Both the position numbers and the translations under genes were made by a program. This document shows positions 2,520-54,021 of a stretch of DNA of 64,000 nt, in pieces. The number at the start of each line of letters is the position of its first letter. Position 1 is the first letter of the stretch. The stretch is from NCBI RefSeq assembly GCF_001677475.2, contig NZ_CP015229.1. One strand, given 5' to 3'. This stretch comes from Escherichia coli (GTDB lineage Bacteria; Pseudomonadota; Gammaproteobacteria; Enterobacterales; Enterobacteriaceae). The notes beneath the pieces are model-generated. The model was not told where the DNA came from. It did no database searches and saw nothing but the letters and a program-made list of their open reading frames with translations.

Positions 2520-3143
2520 ATGTCATACAGCGGCGAACGAGATAACTTTGCACCCCATATGGCGCTGGTGCCGATGGTCATTGAACAGACCTCACGAGGT
2601 GAGCGCTCTTTTGATATCTATTCTCGTCTACTTAAGGAACGCGTCATTTTTCTGACTGGCCAGGTTGAAGACCACATGGCTAACCTGATTGTGGCGCAGA
2701 TGCTGTTCCTGGAAGCAGAAAACCCAGAAAAAGATATCTATCTGTACATTAACTCCCCTGGCGGGGTGATTACTGCCGGGATGTCTATCTATGACACCAT
2801 GCAGTTTATCAAGCCTGATGTCAGCACCATCTGTATGGGCCAGGCGGCCTCGATGGGCGCTTTCTTGCTGACTGCAGGGGCAAAAGGTAAACGTTTTTGC
2901 CTGCCGAATTCGCGCGTGATGATTCACCAACCGTTGGGCGGCTACCAGGGCCAGGCGACCGATATCGAAATTCATGCCCGTGAAATTCTGAAAGTTAAAG
3001 GGCGCATGAATGAACTTATGGCGCTTCATACGGGTCAATCATTAGAACAGATTGAACGTGATACCGAGCGCGATCGCTTCCTTTCTGCCCCTGAAGCGGT
3101 GGAATACGGTCTGGTCGATTCGATTCTGACCCATCGTAATTGA
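2520..3143 (+). CDS. clpP: ATP-dependent Clp protease proteolytic subunit (207 aa)
   Basis: [41 protein letters not shown]... with catalytic-site region GQAASMGAF; matches E. coli ClpP. Confidence 0.98.
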
Positions 3144-3268
3144 TGCCAGAGGCGCAACTGTGCCGCTATACTTATCCAGGGCGGCACAACGCTGTAAGCG
3201 GCTTGCGCCTGAGAATGGCATTTGCGTCGTCGTGTGCGGCACAAAGAACAAAGAAGAGGTTTTGACCC

Positions 3269-4543
3269 ATGACAGATAAACGCAAAGATGGCTCAGGCAA
3301 ATTGCTGTATTGCTCTTTTTGCGGCAAAAGCCAGCATGAAGTGCGCAAGCTGATTGCCGGTCCATCCGTGTATATCTGCGACGAATGTGTTGATTTATGT
3401 AACGACATCATTCGCGAAGAGATTAAAGAAGTTGCACCGCATCGTGAACGCAGTGCGCTACCGACGCCGCATGAAATTCGCAACCACCTGGACGATTACG
3501 TTATCGGTCAGGAACAGGCGAAAAAAGTGCTGGCGGTCGCGGTATATAACCATTACAAACGTCTGCGCAACGGCGATACCAGCAATGGCGTCGAGTTGGG
3601 CAAAAGTAACATTCTGCTGATCGGTCCGACCGGTTCCGGTAAAACGCTGCTGGCCGAAACGCTGGCGCGCCTGCTGGACGTCCCGTTCACCATGGCCGAC
3701 GCAACCACGCTGACCGAAGCCGGTTATGTGGGCGAAGACGTTGAAAACATCATTCAGAAGCTGTTGCAAAAGTGCGATTACGACGTACAGAAAGCGCAGC
3801 GCGGGATTGTCTACATCGATGAAATCGACAAGATTTCTCGTAAGTCAGATAACCCGTCTATTACCCGTGACGTTTCCGGTGAAGGCGTACAGCAGGCACT
3901 GTTGAAACTGATCGAAGGTACGGTAGCTGCTGTTCCGCCGCAAGGTGGGCGTAAACATCCGCAGCAGGAATTCTTGCAGGTTGATACCTCTAAGATCCTG
4001 TTTATCTGTGGCGGTGCGTTTGCCGGTCTGGATAAAGTGATTTCCCATCGTGTAGAAACCGGCTCCGGCATTGGTTTTGGCGCGACGGTAAAAGCGAAAT
4101 CCGACAAAGCAAGCGAAGGCGAGCTGCTGGCGCAGGTTGAACCGGAAGATCTGATCAAGTTTGGTCTGATCCCTGAGTTCATTGGTCGTCTACCGGTTGT
4201 CGCAACGTTGAATGAACTGAGCGAAGAAGCTCTGATTCAGATCCTCAAAGAGCCGAAAAACGCCCTGACCAAGCAGTATCAGGCGCTGTTTAATCTGGAA
4301 GGTGTGGATCTGGAATTCCGTGACGAGGCGCTGGATGCTATCGCTAAGAAAGCGATGGCGCGTAAAACCGGTGCCCGTGGCCTGCGTTCCATCGTAGAAG
4401 CCGCACTGCTCGATACCATGTACGATCTGCCGTCCATGGAAGACGTCGAAAAAGTGGTTATCGACGAATCGGTAATTGATGGTCAAAGCAAGCCGTTGCT
4501 GATTTATGGCAAGCCGGAAGCGCAACAGGCATCTGGTGAATAA
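3269..4543 (+). CDS. clpX: ATP-dependent Clp protease ATP-binding subunit ClpX (424 aa)
   Basis: N-terminal zinc-binding CSFCGK...CDEC motif, Walker A GPTGSGKT; matches E. coli ClpX. Confidence 0.98.
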
Positions 4544-4730: not shown

Positions 4731-7085
4731 ATGAATCCTGAGCGTTCTGAACGCATTGAAATCCCCGTATTGCCGCTGCGCGATGTGGTGGTTTATCCGC
4801 ACATGGTCATCCCCTTATTTGTCGGGCGGGAAAAATCTATCCGTTGTCTGGAAGCGGCGATGGACCATGATAAAAAAATTATGCTGGTCGCGCAGAAAGA
4901 AGCTTCAACGGATGAGCCGGGTGTAAACGATCTTTTCACCGTCGGGACCGTGGCCTCTATATTGCAGATGCTGAAACTGCCTGACGGCACCGTCAAAGTG
5001 CTGGTCGAGGGGTTACAGCGCGCGCGTATTTCTGCGCTCTCTGACAATGGCGAACACTTTTCTGCGAAGGCGGAGTATCTGGAGTCGCCGACCATTGATG
5101 AGCGGGAACAGGAAGTGCTGGTGCGTACTGCAATCAGCCAGTTCGAAGGCTACATCAAGCTGAACAAAAAAATCCCACCAGAAGTGCTGACGTCGCTGAA
5201 TAGCATCGACGATCCGGCGCGTCTGGCGGATACCATTGCTGCACATATGCCGCTGAAACTGGCTGACAAACAGTCCGTTCTGGAGATGTCCGACGTTAAC
5301 GAACGTCTGGAATATCTGATGGCAATGATGGAATCGGAAATCGATCTGCTGCAGGTTGAGAAACGCATTCGCAACCGTGTTAAAAAGCAGATGGAGAAAT
5401 CCCAGCGTGAGTACTATCTGAACGAGCAAATGAAAGCTATTCAGAAAGAACTCGGTGAAATGGACGACGCACCGGACGAAAACGAAGCCCTGAAGCGCAA
5501 AATCGACGCGGCGAAGATGCCGAAAGAGGCAAAAGAGAAAGCGGAAGCAGAGTTGCAGAAGCTGAAAATGATGTCTCCGATGTCGGCAGAAGCGACCGTA
5601 GTGCGTGGTTATATCGACTGGATGGTACAGGTGCCGTGGAATGCGCGTAGCAAGGTCAAAAAAGACCTGCGTCAGGCGCAGGAAATCCTTGATACCGACC
5701 ATTATGGTCTGGAGCGCGTGAAAGATCGTATCCTTGAGTATCTTGCGGTTCAAAGCCGTGTCAACAAAATCAAGGGACCGATCCTCTGTCTGGTAGGGCC
5801 GCCGGGGGTAGGTAAAACGTCCCTGGGTCAGTCCATTGCCAAAGCCACCGGGCGTAAATATGTCCGTATGGCGCTGGGCGGCGTGCGTGATGAAGCGGAA
5901 ATCCGTGGTCACCGCCGTACTTACATCGGTTCTATGCCGGGTAAACTGATCCAGAAAATGGCGAAAGTGGGCGTGAAAAACCCGCTGTTCCTGCTTGATG
6001 AGATCGACAAAATGTCTTCTGACATGCGTGGCGATCCGGCCTCCGCACTGCTTGAAGTGCTGGATCCAGAGCAGAACGTAGCGTTCAGCGACCACTACCT
6101 GGAAGTGGATTACGATCTCAGCGACGTGATGTTTGTCGCGACGTCGAACTCCATGAACATTCCGGCACCGCTGCTGGATCGTATGGAAGTGATTCGCCTC
6201 TCCGGTTATACCGAAGATGAAAAACTGAACATCGCCAAACGTCACCTGCTGCCGAAGCAGATTGAACGTAATGCACTGAAAAAAGGTGAGCTGACCGTCG
6301 ACGATAGCGCCATTATCGGCATTATTCGTTACTACACCCGTGAGGCGGGCGTGCGTGGTCTGGAGCGTGAAATCTCCAAACTGTGCCGCAAAGCGGTTAA
6401 GCAGTTGCTGCTCGATAAGTCATTAAAACATATCGAAATTAACGGCGATAACCTGCATGACTATCTCGGTGTTCAGCGTTTCGACTATGGACGCGCGGAT
6501 AACGAAAACCGTGTTGGTCAGGTAACTGGTCTGGCGTGGACGGAAGTGGGCGGTGACTTGCTGACCATTGAAACCGCGTGCGTTCCGGGTAAAGGCAAAC
6601 TGACCTATACCGGATCGCTTGGCGAAGTGATGCAGGAGTCCATTCAGGCGGCGTTAACGGTGGTTCGTGCGCGTGCGGAAAAACTGGGGATCAACCCTGA
6701 TTTTTACGAAAAACGCGACATCCACGTCCACGTACCGGAAGGTGCGACGCCGAAAGATGGTCCGAGTGCCGGTATTGCTATGTGCACCGCGCTGGTTTCT
6801 TGCCTGACCGGTAACCCGGTTCGTGCCGATGTGGCAATGACCGGTGAGATCACTCTGCGTGGTCAGGTACTGCCGATCGGTGGTTTGAAAGAAAAACTAC
6901 TGGCAGCGCATCGCGGCGGGATTAAAACAGTGCTAATTCCGTTCGAAAATAAACGCGATCTGGAAGAGATTCCTGACAACGTAATTGCCGATCTGGACAT
7001 TCATCCTGTGAAGCGCATTGAGGAAGTTCTGACTCTGGCGCTGCAAAATGAACCGTCTGGCATGCAGGTTGTGACTGCAAAATAG
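4731..7085 (+). CDS. lon: Lon ATP-dependent protease (784 aa)
   Basis: ORF 4686..7085; from ATG at 4731 ([18 protein letters not shown]...) matches E. coli Lon; Walker A GPPGVGKT, catalytic PKDGPSAG. Confidence 0.98.
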
Positions 7086-7757: not shown

Positions 7758-10203
<2,446 letters not shown>

Positions 10204-10244
10204 TGACCTCTGTACTTATAACAACAACGTAAGGTTCTCGCGCT

Positions 10245-21794: not shown

Positions 21795-21824
21795 GCGCAG
21801 TTAACCCTCTCCGCCCGGAGAGGG

Positions 21825-22214
21825 TTAGTAGTTCCAGCGATAACGCTGCAAGTCGATTTGCCCGCTTCCCGATACCATCACACCTTCTGCCAGTAATGCC
21901 TGTCGTTGACGCTGTAAATCCGGTCCGGTTAGCGAAATTGTGCCGTGGCGATTAACCACCCGGTGCCAGGGCAAGGAGCTGCCTTCAGGGAGACGCTTTA
22001 ACACACCGCCCACCTGGCGCGCGGCGCGGGGCGATCCTGCCAGTTTCGCCACATCACCGTAAGTGGTGACATAGCCTTCGGGAATAGCGGCGACGATTTG
22101 CCAGACGCGTTGGGGAAATGAATCTTCTTTTTCCATCTTTTCTTCCTGAGGTAATTTTTCAGCATAATCTGGAAAAACGCCCGAGTGAAGTCGCATTGCG
22201 CAAGAAACCAGCAT
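21825..22214 (-). CDS. atl: alkyltransferase-like DNA base-flipping protein (129 aa)
   Basis: ORF 21825..22235; start at MLVSCAMRLH (22214); matches E. coli Atl (YbaZ). Confidence 0.93.
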   Translation of the reverse strand: MLVSCAMRLHSGVFPDYAEKLPQEEKMEKEDSFPQRVWQIVAAIPEGYVTTYGDVAKLAGSPRAARQVGGVLKRLPEGSSLPWHRVVNRHGTISLTGPDLQRQRQALLAEGVMVSGSGQIDLQRYRWNY

Positions 22215-24466: not shown

Positions 24467-24623
24467 ATCCTTATTAACACAGTGTAGGGAAAGTATATCT
24501 GATTGTGGAAAAAGGCTGGCAGGAGATAAGGAGGTAGCGCTGGTATTTCATGAAGCGATGGGTGGAAACGATCGTTGTCATTTGACCAGGCGTAGAGCTT
24601 TACGCCTGGTATGTAACCCTAAC

Positions 24624-27096: not shown

Positions 27097-30249
<3,153 letters not shown>

Positions 30250-30268: not shown

Positions 30269-31462
30269 TTAAGACTTGGACTGTTCAGGCTGAGCACCGC
30301 TTGCGGCTTGCTGGTTATTATCAGCGGTAACTTCTTGTGCTTTTACCTGGACACCAGGACGCACTTTCTGCAGCCCACTTATTACTACGCGATCGCCTGC
30401 TTTCAGACCTTCTGTCACCAGCCACTTATCGCCAATAGCCTGGCTTGCAACGATCGGACGGGTTTCCACTTTGTCATCCGCGCCAACCACCAGTACGGTG
30501 GCATCGCCACGCGGCGTACGGGTTACGCCCTGTTGCGGGACTAAAATAGCGTTTGGATTAAGCCCTTCTTCCAGACGTGCGCGCACGAACATACCCGGCA
30601 GCAGAGTGTGATCCGGGTTCGGGAAGATAGCGCGTAGGGTGATAGACCCAGTGGTCTGATCAACGGTAACGTCAGAGAATTCCAGCGTACCGTCCTGCGG
30701 GAACTTAATGCCGTCACTGGTGATCAGCGACACTTTGGCTTTGCCGTTCTCTTGTTTCAGCGTGCCATTTGCCAGTTCCTGTTTCAGGCGCAGGAAGTCG
30801 TTGCTGGACTGGGTCACATCAACGTAGATCGGATCAAGTTGCTGCACGGTTGCCAGCGCAGTCGCCTGACCGTTCTGTACCAATGCGCCTTCCGTCACGT
30901 TCGACTTACCAATGCGACCGCTAATCGGAGAGGTGACTTTGGTGTAAGCCAGATTGATCCGCGCAGTTTCAACGGCAGCTTTCGCCGCAGTGACCGCAGC
31001 ATTCGCCTGTTGCGCATCAGCCAGAGCCTGATCGTACTCTTGCTTACTGATGTACTGAGTACCGAGCAGTTTCTGATAACGATTCACCGTCAATTGCGCG
31101 ATATTGGCTGCAGCCTGGGCTTTCGCCAGATCACCTTTCGCACTGTCGTATGCCGCCTGATAGGTCGCAGGATCAATCTGATAGAGAGAGACACCTGCTT
31201 CGATGTCGCTACCTTCTTTGAAATTACGCTTCAGGATAATCCCGCTAACTTGAGGACGAACTTCTGCGATCCGGTAGGCACTGGTGCGACCCGGAAGCTC
31301 GGTTGTGATCTGCAGAGGTTCAGTTTTGACTGTTACTACGCCAACGGCGGGCATCTGCTGGCCACCTTGTTGGGCCTGTTTGTCGTCACATCCTGTTAGG
31401 GCTAAGCTGCCTGAGAGCATCAGAACGACCGCCAGAGGCGTAAACCCTCTGTTTTTGTTCAT
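30269..31462 (-). CDS. acrA: RND efflux periplasmic adaptor lipoprotein AcrA (397 aa)
   Basis: ORF 30269..31498; start at MNKNRGFTPLAVVLMLSGSLALTGC (31462); matches E. coli AcrA. Confidence 0.97.
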   Translation of the reverse strand: MNKNRGFTPLAVVLMLSGSLALTGCDDKQAQQGGQQMPAVGVVTVKTEPLQITTELPGRTSAYRIAEVRPQVSGIILKRNFKEGSDIEAGVSLYQIDPATYQAAYDSAKGDLAKAQAAANIAQLTVNRYQKLLGTQYISKQEYDQALADAQQANAAVTAAKAAVETARINLAYTKVTSPISGRIGKSNVTEGALVQNGQATALATVQQLDPIYVDVTQSSNDFLRLKQELANGTLKQENGKAKVSLITSDGIKFPQDGTLEFSDVTVDQTTGSITLRAIFPNPDHTLLPGMFVRARLEEGLNPNAILVPQQGVTRTPRGDATVLVVGADDKVETRPIVASQAIGDKWLVTEGLKAGDRVVISGLQKVRPGVQVKAQEVTADNNQQAASGAQPEQSKS

Positions 31463-31551
31463 ATGTAAACCTCGAGTGTCCGATTTCAAATTGGTCAATG
31501 GTCAAAAGTTAATAAACCCATTGCTGCGTTTATATTATCGTCGTGCTATGG

Positions 31552-31575
31552 TACATACATTCACAAATGTATGTA
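31552..31575. promoter_or_regulatory. AcrR operator, 24-bp inverted repeat in the acrR-acrA divergent promoter region
   Basis: palindrome TACATACATT-CACA-AATGTATGTA. Confidence 0.85.
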
Positions 31576-31603
31576 AATCTAACGCCTGTAAATTCACGAA
31601 CAT

Positions 31604-32251
31604 ATGGCACGAAAAACCAAACAAGAAGCGCAAGAAACGCGCCAACACATCCTCGATGTGGCTCTACGTCTTTTCTCACAGCAGGGGGTATCATCCACCT
31701 CGCTGGGCGAGATTGCAAAAGCAGCTGGCGTTACGCGCGGTGCAATCTACTGGCATTTTAAAGACAAGTCGGATTTGTTCAGTGAGATCTGGGAACTGTC
31801 AGAATCCAATATTGGTGAACTAGAGCTTGAGTATCAGGCAAAATTCCCTGGCGATCCACTCTCAGTATTAAGAGAGATATTAATTCATGTTCTTGAATCC
31901 ACGGTGACAGAAGAACGGCGTCGATTATTGATGGAGATTATATTCCACAAATGCGAATTTGTCGGAGAAATGGCTGTTGTGCAACAGGCACAACGTAATC
32001 TCTGTCTGGAAAGTTATGACCGTATAGAACAAACGTTAAAACATTGTATTGAAGCGAAAATGTTGCCTGCGGATTTAATGACGCGTCGCGCAGCAATTAT
32101 TATGCGCGGCTATATTTCCGGCCTGATGGAAAACTGGCTCTTTGCCCCGCAATCTTTTGATCTTAAAAAAGAAGCCCGCGATTACGTCGCCATCTTACTG
32201 GAGATGTATCTCCTGTGCCCCACGCTTCGTAATCCTGCCACTAACGAATAA
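31604..32251 (+). CDS. acrR: TetR-family repressor of acrAB (215 aa)
   Basis: [52 protein letters not shown] (TetR HTH); matches E. coli AcrR. Confidence 0.97.
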
Positions 32252-32378: not shown

Positions 32379-35300
32379 ATGACTATGTTCCAGTATTACA
32401 AACGATCACGGCATTTTGTTTTTTCAGCATTTATTGCTTTTGTTTTTGTCTTGTTATGCCAGAACACGGCGTTTGCGCGGGCGTCATCGAATGGTGATTT
32501 ACCGACAAAAGCGGACCTGCAGGCGCAACTTGACTCACTAAATAAACAAAAAGATCTTTCTGCTCAGGACAAACTAGTGCAGCAGGATCTGACAGATACA
32601 TTAGCCACCCTCGATAAAATCGATCGCGTAAAAGAAGAGACAGTTCAGCTACGGCAAAAAGTCGCTGAAGCGCCGGAAAAAATGCGTCAGGCGACCGCAG
32701 CGTTAACAGCACTTAGCGATGTCGATAACGACGAAGAAACTCGCAAAATTCTGAGTACGCTTTCGTTGCGCCAGCTGGAAACTCGCGTTGCCCAAGCGCT
32801 GGACGATTTGCAGAACGCACAAAACGATCTGGCGTCTTATAACAGCCAGCTGGTTTCGTTACAGACGCAGCCCGAACGCGTGCAAAATGCGATGTATAAC
32901 GCTTCGCAGCAGCTGCAACAAATTCGCAGTCGTCTGGATGGGACTGATGTCGGCGAGACTGCCTTACGTCCCAGCCAGAAAGTGTTAATGCAGGCCCAGC
33001 AGGCGTTGCTGAATGCGGAGATTGACCAGCAGCGTAAAAGCCTGGAAGGGAATACCGTCTTGCAGGATACCTTGCAAAAGCAACGTGATTACGTGACGGC
33101 GAACAGCGCCCGTCTGGAGCACCAGTTACAACTGTTGCAAGAAGCGGTAAACAGCAAGCGCCTGACTTTAACCGAAAAAACGGCGCAGGAGGCCGTCTCC
33201 CCGGATGAAGCCGCGCGTATTCAGGCTAATCCGCTGGTGAAGCAGGAACTGGAAATTAACCAGCAGTTAAGTCAGCGTCTGATTACCGCGACTGAAAACG
33301 GTAATCAGTTGATGCAGCAAAACATTAAAGTCAAAAACTGGCTGGAGCGGGCGCTTCAATCGGAACGCAATATTAAAGAGCAGATTGCCGTCCTGAAGGG
33401 CAGCCTGCTGTTGTCTCGTATCCTTTACCAGCAACAACAAACGCTGCCCTCGGCGGATGAACTGGAAAACATGACCAACCGCATCGCGGATTTGCGTCTC
33501 GAACAGTTTGAAGTTAACCAGCAGCGTGATGCACTCTTCCAGAGCGATGCGTTCGTCAACAAACTGGAAGAAGGTCACACCAACGAAGTCAACAGCGAAG
33601 TTCACGATGCGTTATTGCAAGTAGTTGATATGCGTCGCGAATTGCTGGATCAGCTTAACAAACAGTTGGGTAACCAATTGATGATGGCCATTAACCTGCA
33701 AATCAACCAGCAGCAGTTAATGAGTGTGTCGAAAAACCTGAAATCCATCCTGACTCAGCAAATCTTTTGGGTGAACAGTAACCGTCCAATGGACTGGGAC
33801 TGGATCAAAGCGTTCCCGCAAAGCCTGAAAGATGAATTTAAGTCGATGAAAATCACGGTGAACTGGGAAAAAGCCTGGCCTGCCGTTTTTATCGCTTTCC
33901 TCGCCGGTTTGCCGCTGCTGTTGATTGCCGGGCTGATCCACTGGCGTCTGGGCTGGCTGAAAGCGTATCAACAAAAACTGGCTTCCGCTGTGGGTTCCCT
34001 GCGTAACGACAGCCAGCTCAACACACCAAAAGCGATCCTTATCGACCTGATCCGTGCGCTGCCGGTGTGCCTGATTATTCTCGCGGTTGGCCTGATTCTG
34101 TTGACCATGCAGCTCAACATCAGCGAACTGCTATGGTCGTTCAGTAAAAAACTGGCGATTTTCTGGCTGGTGTTTGGCCTGTGCTGGAAAGTGTTGGAGA
34201 AAAACGGCGTTGCCGTGCGTCACTTTGGTATGCCTGAACAGCAGACCAGCCACTGGCGTCGGCAAATTGTCCGCATCAGTCTCGCATTGCTGCCTATCCA
34301 TTTCTGGTCTGTGGTGGCAGAACTTTCCCCGCTGCATCTGATGGATGATGTGTTGGGGCAGGCGATGATTTTCTTCAACCTGCTGCTGATTGCCTTCCTG
34401 GTATGGCCGATGTGCCGCGAAAGCTGGCGTGATAAAGAGTCGCATACCATGCGACTGGTCACCATTACCGTGCTGTCGATTATCCCGATTGCGTTGATGG
34501 TGCTGACCGCCACGGGTTATTTCTACACCACGCTGCGCCTCTCAGGGCGTTGGATTGAAACCGTTTATTTGGTGATCATCTGGAACCTGCTGTACCAGAC
34601 GGTATTGCGCGGCTTAAGCGTAGCGGCGCGGCGTATCGCCTGGCGTCGTGCGCTGGCGCGTCGGCAGAATCTGGTGAAAGAGGGCGCAGAAGGTGCTGAA
34701 CCGCCGGAAGAACCCACCATTGCACTGGAGCAGGTTAACCAGCAGACGCTGCGTATTACCATGTTGCTGATGTTTGCGCTGTTCGGTGTCATGTTCTGGG
34801 CGATTTGGTCCGATTTGATCACCGTGTTCAGCTATCTCGACAGCATTACGCTCTGGCATTACAACGGCACTGAAGCTGGCGCTGCGGTGGTGAAAAACGT
34901 CACCATGGGCAGTCTGTTGTTTGCGATTATCGCCTCAATGGTAGCCTGGGCGTTAATTCGCAACCTGCCTGGTTTGCTGGAAGTGTTGGTGCTCTCGCGC
35001 CTGAACATGCGCCAGGGCGCGTCGTATGCCATTACTACCATCCTTAACTACATCATTATTGCCGTTGGTGCGATGACGGTGTTCGGATCGCTGGGCGTCT
35101 CTTGGGATAAACTCCAGTGGCTGGCAGCAGCATTATCCGTAGGTCTTGGTTTTGGTTTACAAGAGATCTTCGGTAACTTCGTCTCCGGTTTGATCATTCT
35201 GTTCGAACGTCCGGTACGCATTGGCGATACGGTAACCATTGGTAGCTTCTCGGGGACGGTAAGTAAGATTCGTATTCGTGCGACAACGATTACCGATTTC

Positions 35301-35741
35301 GATCGCAAAGAAGTGATCATCCCGAACAAAGCGTTTGTTACCGAGCGTCTGATCAACTGGTCGTTGACTGACACTACTACGCGTCTGGTGATCCGTCTCG
35401 GCGTGGCCTATGGCTCCGATCTGGAAAAAGTGCGTAAAGTATTACTGAAGGCGGCGACTGAGCACCCAAGGGTGATGCACGAACCAATGCCGGAAGTCTT
35501 CTTTACGGCGTTTGGTGCCAGCACGTTGGATCATGAGCTGCGTCTGTATGTGCGTGAACTGCGTGACCGTAGCCGTACTGTCGATGAGCTGAACCGTACT
35601 ATCGATCAGCTGTGCCGTGAAAACGACATCAATATTGCCTTTAACCAGCTTGAAGTGCATCTGCACAACGAGAAGGGCGATGAGGTGACGGAAGTCAAAC
35701 GCGACTACAAAGGCGACGATCCGACGCCAGCGGTAGGGTAA
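32379..35741 (+). CDS. mscK: potassium-dependent mechanosensitive channel MscK (1120 aa)
   Basis: signal peptide, long periplasmic coiled-coil region, TM domain and MscS-like C-terminus; matches E. coli MscK/KefA. Confidence 0.97.
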   Translation: MTMFQYYKRSRHFVFSAFIAFVFVLLCQNTAFARASSNGDLPTKADLQAQLDSLNKQKDLSAQDKLVQQDLTDTLATLDKIDRVKEETVQLRQKVAEAPEKMRQATAALTALSDVDNDEETRKILSTLSLRQLETRVAQALDDLQNAQNDLASYNSQLVSLQTQPERVQNAMYNASQQLQQIRSRLDGTDVGETALRPSQKVLMQAQQALLNAEIDQQRKSLEGNTVLQDTLQKQRDYVTANSARLEHQLQLLQEAVNSKRLTLTEKTAQEAVSPDEAARIQANPLVKQELEINQQLSQRLITATENGNQLMQQNIKVKNWLERALQSERNIKEQIAVLKGSLLLSRILYQQQQTLPSADELENMTNRIADLRLEQFEVNQQRDALFQSDAFVNKLEEGHTNEVNSEVHDALLQVVDMRRELLDQLNKQLGNQLMMAINLQINQQQLMSVSKNLKSILTQQIFWVNSNRPMDWDWIKAFPQSLKDEFKSMKITVNWEKAWPAVFIAFLAGLPLLLIAGLIHWRLGWLKAYQQKLASAVGSLRNDSQLNTPKAILIDLIRALPVCLIILAVGLILLTMQLNISELLWSFSKKLAIFWLVFGLCWKVLEKNGVAVRHFGMPEQQTSHWRRQIVRISLALLPIHFWSVVAELSPLHLMDDVLGQAMIFFNLLLIAFLVWPMCRESWRDKESHTMRLVTITVLSIIPIALMVLTATGYFYTTLRLSGRWIETVYLVIIWNLLYQTVLRGLSVAARRIAWRRALARRQNLVKEGAEGAEPPEEPTIALEQVNQQTLRITMLLMFALFGVMFWAIWSDLITVFSYLDSITLWHYNGTEAGAAVVKNVTMGSLLFAIIASMVAWALIRNLPGLLEVLVLSRLNMRQGASYAITTILNYIIIAVGAMTVFGSLGVSWDKLQWLAAALSVGLGFGLQEIFGNFVSGLIILFERPVRIGDTVTIGSFSGTVSKIRIRATTITDFDRKEVIIPNKAFVTERLINWSLTDTTTRLVIRLGVAYGSDLEKVRKVLLKAATEHPRVMHEPMPEVFFTAFGASTLDHELRLYVRELRDRSRTVDELNRTIDQLCRENDINIAFNQLEVHLHNEKGDEVTEVKRDYKGDDPTPAVG

Positions 35742-40852: not shown

Positions 40853-40881
40853 GCAAACGAGAGCAGGATCACCTGCTCTCG

Positions 40882-42836: not shown

Positions 42837-42842
42837 TGTAAT

Positions 42843-42879
42843 GCCGGATGACCCTCGTGTCATCCGGCATTTTTCTTTT
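42843..42879 (+). terminator. rho-independent terminator after htpG
   Basis: hairpin gccggatgac-cctcgt-gtcatccggc followed by ATTTTTCTTTT. Confidence 0.85.
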
Positions 42880-49071: not shown

Positions 49072-49308
49072 TCCGTCTCCTTTTCCTGGTGGTTATTGTC
49101 CATTTTTGGCCGGGAAAACCAAAATTACAGGTAATAGTTTATGACAATTTCATTGATGATGTTTATGAATAATTGTTGAATTTTGCAGAAAAATGGAATT
49201 AGCTGCAAAAAAAGCACGGATCGGAAAACTGAAGGCGGTTTAACAGAGGAAAGGCTTATGGCGACTGTAAAACGATGCAGCCAAAGTTTGCCTTTGGCTG
49301 CAATGAAA

Positions 49309-53913: not shown

Positions 53914-54021
53914 ACGGCCTCCCTTTGTGAAATATCATGCTAGCGCGCGGGGAGGGATGGCGCAAATGGAGTTGATTGTTGCACTTGTGCACAGTGCGTC
54001 ATCCGGCAACTGAGTACCATT

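Follow-up and report, generated by a model that had tools for sequence, protein, structure and literature searches.

Does the palindrome lying between the divergent genes acrR and acrA in this Escherichia coli genome serve as the operator of the acrAB efflux operon, and what does its intact state imply for drug resistance in the strain? We considered these questions in a window of 64,000 nucleotides (the whole stretch of DNA analysed, from contig NZ_CP015229.1 of assembly GCF_001677475.2). Our overall explanation, to which we assign a probability of roughly 95%, is that the palindrome is the operator of acrAB, with arms read by AcrR and by EnvR/AcrS, and that it would act through promoter occlusion and also place acrR under autoregulation. 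What was established here is the identity of the sequence, where it lies, how far it is conserved and that it is intact; binding and ligand release are taken from the literature.

The palindrome and its genomic setting

Positions 31552-31575 of the window read TACATACATTCACAAATGTATGTA, which a repeat finder resolves into a perfect 10+4+10 inverted repeat, with arms that are 100% complementary and lie 4 nt apart (Table 1), so that the perfect inverted repeat with a CACA spacer described in the original prediction is recovered exactly. Six of the 20 arm bases are G or C. A search for the arm pattern gives a single hit in the 64-kb window, even when up to three mismatches are tolerated, and 100 dinucleotide-preserving shuffles of the window gave no match to it. 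More generally, a search for perfect palindromes with arms of at least 10 bp and spacers of 0-10 bp returned 15 overlapping calls, corresponding to approximately nine distinct sites, against a shuffle mean of 1.2 (0.13 for spacers of exactly 4). Among these sites, the AT-rich palindrome at 31552-31575 is the one situated in the acrR-acrA divergent promoter region. Given its uniqueness in the window, its absence from the shuffles and the excess of palindromes over the shuffles, we reject the possibility that it is a chance palindrome.

Eight further perfect palindromes with arms of at least 10 bp and short spacers are present in the window (10187-10211, 21802-21827, 24585-24610, 33279-33308, 40858-40881, 42841-42870, 49276-49302 and 62703-62732). 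These are mostly GC-rich and terminator-like, and are probably intrinsic terminators; one of them lies within mscK.

Table 1 Positions in the window of the palindrome, neighbouring genes and predicted regulatory features
Feature	Position	Strand	Description
Left arm	31552-31561		TACATACATT, 10 nt
Spacer	31562-31565		CACA, 4 nt
Right arm	31566-31575		AATGTATGTA, 10 nt
acrR	31604-32251	+	TetR-family repressor, 215 aa, intact; NCBIfam equivalog NF007949, 419 bits (cut-off 271)
acrA	30269-31462	-	Periplasmic adaptor, 397 aa; NCBIfam equivalog NF011604; T104A relative to K-12
acrB	27097-30246	-	RND permease, 1049 aa; NCBIfam equivalog NF011706; S1043N relative to K-12
MscK	32379-35741	+	Above NCBIfam equivalog cut-off
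lon	4731-7085		Protein identical to K-12; 22 nucleotide differences
Predicted acrAB -35	31572-31577	-	TTTACA, consensus scan; overlaps 4 nt of right arm
Predicted acrAB -10	31548-31553	-	TACCAT, consensus scan; 18-nt spacer; overlaps 2 nt of left arm
Candidate acrR promoter	31509-31538	+	Consensus scan; TTAATA, 16-18 nt, TATATT or TATTAT
mar/sox/rob box (MarA/SoxS/Rob activator site)	31604-31622	+	Sole exact match in the window to consensus AYNGCACNNWNNRYYAAAY; 0.11 expected from shuffles

The window is collinear with positions 454158-508141 of K-12 MG1655, with 98.4% identity over 54 kb. Both genes flanking the palindrome are NCBIfam equivalogs, and their starts (acrA at 31462 on the minus strand, acrR at 31604 on the plus strand) bear out its proposed position between divergent acrR and acrAB. 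The 141-bp intergenic region between them is identical to K-12 485620-485760 without a single difference, in agreement with the suggestion that the strain is wild type at the level of the operator. The AcrR protein, including residue R45, is also identical to that of K-12; a mutation of R45 is linked to acrB expression in the title of a work cited as ref. 77 in PMC7355843. The acrR gene carries one synonymous change, at nt 585, and the comparison of its coding sequence with the reference that was proposed as a check thus reveals no inactivating mutation. In a sequence search, full-length AcrR matches PDB entries 2qop/3bcg. The ClpX and ClpP proteins are, like Lon, identical to those of K-12. 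No difference from K-12 is therefore present at the operator locus, and the host belongs to a non-K-12 E. coli lineage, in which AcrA T104A and AcrB S1043N are probably lineage polymorphisms.

Two differences in gene content lie further along the window. Positions 59180-64000, which follow ybaT, have no match in the K-12 interval 452000-522000, and hold a gene for a TolC-family outer-membrane protein together with the start of a gene for a SiiEA BapA-related giant adhesin; among 5426 E. coli genomes, 957 carry this segment at a coverage of at least 80%, with a best full-length identity of only 97.2%. Additionally, the ybaQ region of K-12 (508142-508708, approximately 570 bp) is missing, with approximately 25 bp in its place at 53975-53999.

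Identity with the published AcrR operator

The published 24-bp AcrR site in acrABp is 5'-TACATACATTTGTGAATGTATGTA-3', with its two 10-bp inverted repeats set 4 bp apart (PMC9769551, PMC10597343). The sequence at 31552-31575 is its exact reverse complement in all 24 bases, and where PMC10597343 prints the site in both orientations, the version 5'-TACATACATTCACAAATGTATGTA agrees with positions 31552-31575 in every letter. On the basis of this exact match, and of the location between divergent acrR and acrA, we identify the palindrome as the AcrR operator, as originally predicted. Judged by its sequence, it is the already-published AcrR/EnvR operator of acrAB, and there is nothing new at the operator itself. 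All 24 of its bases, read on the opposite strand, agree with the acrR-acrAB operator of K-12, and the surrounding 141-bp intergenic region and the AcrR protein are the same as in K-12.

Both PMC9769551 and PMC10597343 trace the site to Su, Rutherford & Yu 2007, a study reported to have used fluorescence polarization; the fluorescence polarization and EMSA experiments described in the literature were carried out with whole promoter fragments. Our literature search found no arm mutagenesis tested with AcrR itself in E. coli.

The acrAB operators of Salmonella and Klebsiella share the 10-bp arms and the position in a divergent intergenic region, and are bound by AcrR and EnvR; unlike in E. coli, RamA is the main activator in these two genera. 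The 4-bp spacer differs across genera (CATA, CGCG, CGCA and others, as opposed to CACA in the window). In the TetR/tetO and QacR/IR1 systems a palindrome likewise lies in the intergenic region between divergent regulator and pump genes, where it overlaps the promoter, and the repressor is released when its C-terminal domain binds a ligand (PMC8277102, PMC3511530), although the recognition sequences differ from that of the AcrR operator. AcrR has been proposed to bind as two dimers, as does QacR, in contrast to the single dimer of TetR (PMC10597343). In a PDB search, the nearest solved relatives of AcrR after Salmonella AcrR (3lhq) are TtgR of Pseudomonas putida (E of approximately 1e-44) and MtrR of Neisseria (approximately 1e-32), which, like AcrR, repress RND pumps locally, with the genes arranged divergently. 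Their operators are presumably related to the sequence at 31552-31575, yet not identical with it.

Predicted promoters, activator site and leader

The two hexamers predicted for acrAB by consensus scan lie on either side of the palindrome and overlap its outer bases (Table 1). Among the matches listed in our cross-species scan (see below), 91 Enterobacterales loci show that the two bases just outside the right arm (31576-31577) are nearly invariant, and that conservation is also strong over the block GTGCTATGG (31544-31552). We infer a start of acrAB transcription near 31541, in which case the palindrome would cover approximately -11 to -34. The palindrome would then fill the spacer of a sigma-70-like acrAB promoter and touch both predicted hexamers, an arrangement that fits promoter occlusion. 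A literature search for mapped start coordinates of acrAB or acrR transcription returned none that were usable.

On the acrR side two candidate promoters can be recognised. With the candidate given in Table 1, the -35 hexamer of which (TTAATA) is poorly conserved across genera, the operator would occupy approximately +8 to +31 of the acrR leader. The second emerges from the heptamer TATGGTA at 31547-31553, which is -10-like on both strands, reading as TATGGT on the plus strand, where it follows a TG at 31544-31545, and as TACCAT on the minus strand. This heptamer suggests a symmetric bidirectional acrAB/acrR promoter, with starts that would be approximately 18 bp apart. Both candidates are consistent with an operator at or just after the acrR start, a placement that agrees with the reported repression by AcrR of its own gene as well as of acrAB (PMC7355843).

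These same features raise the possibility that the palindrome is kept mainly as part of a core promoter, either as the spacer and hexamer edges of the acrAB promoter or as a symmetric bidirectional promoter, with repressor binding secondary. The palindrome sits exactly between the predicted -35 and -10, the -10-like heptamer is shared by both strands, and neighbouring promoter bases are approximately as conserved as the arms. However, promoter spacers are normally unconstrained, and a promoter has no need of perfect two-fold symmetry; the distribution of the arms across species, considered below, also bears on this reading.

Farther upstream of acrAB, the mar/sox/rob box falls on the codons with which acrR begins (ATGGCACGAAAAACCAAAC), the same bases being both coding sequence and activator site, and it lies at approximately -63 to -82 from the putative acrAB start. 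We take it to be the acrAB marbox, in the class I arrangement known from the work of Martin and Rosner. Binding of MarA to the acrR-acrA intergenic region has been described (PMC7355843).

A separate observation concerns a 17-bp block, AAACCCATTGCTGCGTT (31515-31531), which is nearly invariant in the 91 Enterobacterales loci among the matches listed (approximately 1.6-2 bits per column), and which the search pattern did not constrain. The block would fall within the predicted acrA leader, at approximately +10 to +27, as well as within the spacer of the candidate acrR promoter, and can fold as an imperfect hairpin whose loop is GCAA. The predicted fold of the acrA leader was no better than that of shuffled sequences (z of -0.72), and an Rfam scan of 31300-31750 with E up to 1 gave no match to any family. 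The block and the TATGGTA heptamer might together form an undescribed control element, either a hairpin stabilising the 5' end of the acrA mRNA or a symmetric bidirectional promoter core shut in both directions by one repressor site, a proposal that we regard as speculative and rather unlikely.

Since the arms could pair perfectly over 10 bp around a loop of 4 nt, and may be transcribed within the acrR leader, the palindrome could alternatively function as a nucleic-acid hairpin, that is, as a terminator or as an RNA element of the leader. Yet the arms are AT-rich and no T-run follows them, a terminator scan makes no call, and the Rfam scan, which covers this site as well, gave no match. Moreover, the arms are invariant across genera without compensatory changes, a pattern that fits sequence-specific reading by a protein. 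We therefore reject an intrinsic terminator or structural RNA, for which a GC-rich stem with a T-run or a match to an RNA family would be expected, and consider a hairpin function scarcely credible.

Conservation across species

Taking one genome per species, we looked for both arms in exact form, separated by any 4-bp spacer, and obtained at least 120 loci; because exact arms were demanded, this number reflects the reach of the site and not the frequency of AcrR orthologues without it. Among the 120 matches listed, an AcrR homologue was detected by tblastn near the palindrome in at least 115. In at least 111 of the matches listed, all with full flanks, a divergent AcrR homologue begins no more than 200 bp from the palindrome, and in most of those listed an acrA homologue lies on the opposite side. 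The exact arms are thus found between acrR-like and acrA-like genes in more than 100 other species, with AcrR identities down to 35%, and the co-occurrence of a palindrome in the regulator-target intergenic region with a conserved helix-turn-helix domain, which is the mark of TetR-type operators, extends to the at least 111 loci mentioned. Spacing is also maintained: among the matches listed, 91 loci are of Enterobacterales type (AcrR at least 55% identical), and in 88 of them acrR starts 27-29 bp from the palindrome. The spacers themselves, read with acrR rightward, are CACA in 36 of the matches listed, CATA in 22, CGCG in 10 and CGCA in 7, with others making up the remainder.

The more distant loci are informative with regard to what the arms are kept for. 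At least 20 of the matches listed retain all 20 arm bases beside an AcrR homologue of only 35-45% identity, and these include Aeromonas, Acidovorax, Ottowia, Comamonas, Polaromonas, Silvimonas and Aquabacterium; the loci concerned (L004, L011, L013, L017-L019, L021, L031, L047, L061, L068, L076, L077 and L081, among others) belong to Aeromonas, several Betaproteobacteria and one Bacteroidota MAG. In the 18 distant loci with splittable alignments among the matches listed, residues 1-66, which make up the DNA-binding domain, are 62% identical to those of E. coli AcrR, as against 27% for the remainder (the ligand domain), and the motif TRGA[IV]YWHF is invariant in all 18. The flanking promoter sequence is not conserved in this low-identity group of Aeromonas and betaproteobacterial loci, despite their exact arms. 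That the arms persist there without a conserved flanking promoter, and track the DNA-binding domain of the repressor, argues against a mainly core-promoter role for the palindrome, which we consider very improbable.

Some matches depart from the general pattern. Two in AT-rich Firmicutes are unrelated, one lying in a coding ORF and the other being a terminator-like hairpin. In L073 (Parendozoicomonas, 8992-9015) and L110 (6063-6086) the palindrome adjoins an AcrA-like gene and no AcrR-like gene was detected nearby, and in L054 (Pseudidiomarina, 410-433) it lies beside an msrA-like ORF; in these three cases either the regulator is encoded elsewhere or the locus is cut short. In the Bacteroidota MAG, an AcrR-type regulator starts 11 bp from the palindrome.

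The exact arms may represent a shared 'operator code' of AcrR-type regulators in the Gamma- and Betaproteobacteria, an idea which, like the control element discussed above and separately from it, we advance with little confidence. If true, cross-repression by paralogous or horizontally acquired repressors would be possible.

Repressor binding and proposed mechanism

Under our preferred explanation, namely that the palindrome is the operator of acrAB, the N-terminal helix-turn-helix of a TetR-family repressor, either the local AcrR or its paralogue EnvR/AcrS, would read each 10-bp arm, and the bound repressor, lying over the 18-bp spacer and the inner edges of the -35 and -10, would keep RNA polymerase off the promoter. 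As the site lies at or just downstream of the putative divergent acrR start, transcription of acrR would be damped too. Ethidium or polyamines in the C-terminal pocket would take AcrR off the DNA and allow acrAB to be expressed, and MarA, SoxS and Rob would activate independently through the marbox, approximately 30 bp farther upstream. Within this scheme, the geometry of occlusion, a dimer-of-dimers stoichiometry and the position of the acrR start are inferred.

Several published experiments are relevant to these steps. Purified AcrR shifts a fragment of the acrAB promoter of E. coli K-12 BW25113 by EMSA (PMC9769551), and the acrAB promoter region of the window is identical in sequence to that of K-12 MG1655. 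The AcrR-acrABp shift is prevented by ethidium bromide, putrescine, cadaverine and spermidine, and the induction of acrABp-lacZ by these ligands depends on acrR (PMC9769551). The palindrome is bound by EnvR/AcrS too, and in Salmonella the mutation of five positions in each arm abolishes EnvR binding (PMC9780535), a result that also speaks against a mainly core-promoter role. Furthermore, AcrAB is overproduced without ramA induction in a K. pneumoniae isolate of clinical origin, in which the first arm carries a T-to-C change at position 5 (bioRxiv 10.1101/138248). These results support the arms as the recognition elements, and show that derepression at the level of the operator does occur in nature.

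The binding of two repressor dimers per operator (a dimer of dimers) has been suggested in PMC10597343. Our PDB sequence search gave no AcrR-DNA complex, but only apo AcrR (2qop, 3bcg), and this mode consequently stays a proposal.

Given that EnvR reads the same arms, it could be argued that EnvR/AcrS, and not AcrR, is physiologically dominant at the site, and that 'AcrR operator' is a misnomer. EnvR is reported to have a higher affinity for acrABp than does AcrR and to repress more strongly when overexpressed, with overexpression of envR in Salmonella reducing acrAB transcription to 0.05-fold, and its binding requires this palindrome (PMC9780535). Against this, envR expression is negligible in laboratory conditions (PMC9780535), AcrR binds the promoter fragment and mediates induction by ligands in vivo (PMC9769551), and it is acrR that adjoins the site, at the near-fixed distance found throughout the Enterobacterales loci listed. 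We therefore hold dominance of EnvR to be more improbable still than a core-promoter role; in any case, that reading and the AcrR-operator reading are complementary and not exclusive. The physiological weight of the AcrR operator appears to be modest, as deletion of acrR in Salmonella barely alters MICs (PMC9780535).

Variation within E. coli and implications for resistance

The 901-bp acrR region was recovered from 5423 of 5426 complete E. coli genomes, and strains such as IAI39, SMS-3-5 and CE10 share it with 100% identity. Of these 5423 genomes, 5276 have a 58-bp core around the operator at 100% identity, and the operator with 3 bp on each side (a 30-mer) was matched by megablast in 5382 of the 5426 (approximately 99.2%), in a search requiring a 28-base word, such that almost any internal substitution abolishes the match. 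Approximately 41 genomes have the locus without the exact 30-mer. An intact operator is the norm for the species, its presence in this strain is uninformative, given the 5382 genomes that share it, and only a disruption would be worth flagging.

In E. coli Z1323CEC0008 (NZ_CP148461.1), an IS481-family element of approximately 1.08 kb lies between an intact operator and acrR (at approximately 3049-4120 of that locus, after the equivalent of window position 31582). As a result of the insertion, the acrAB promoter is separated from both the marbox and acrR.

When acrAB is up-regulated, the cause usually lies in marR, soxR, rob or lon. Loss of Lon stabilises MarA and SoxS. The genes marR, soxR, rob and envR all lie outside the 64-kb window. 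In E. coli selected with tetracycline or chloramphenicol, changes were found in marR and lon and none in acrR, and a parental E. coli with an IS1-disrupted acrR was still susceptible to several drugs (PMC11753663). The original prediction was consequently too narrow in expecting any resistance-associated change to lie in acrR itself: acrR is wild type here, the pump is also under the control of the marbox, EnvR acts at the same palindrome, and intactness of the operator carries little information.

The operator finding is thus correct, though ordinary, and adds no new biology. With the operator, promoter, marbox and AcrR identical to those of K-12, and Lon unchanged, local control of AcrAB, the main multidrug efflux pump of E. 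coli, should be wild type and equal to that of K-12, and efflux-based resistance, if there is any, would need to be sought in loci outside the window (marR, soxR, rob or envR), or in mechanisms other than AcrAB regulation.
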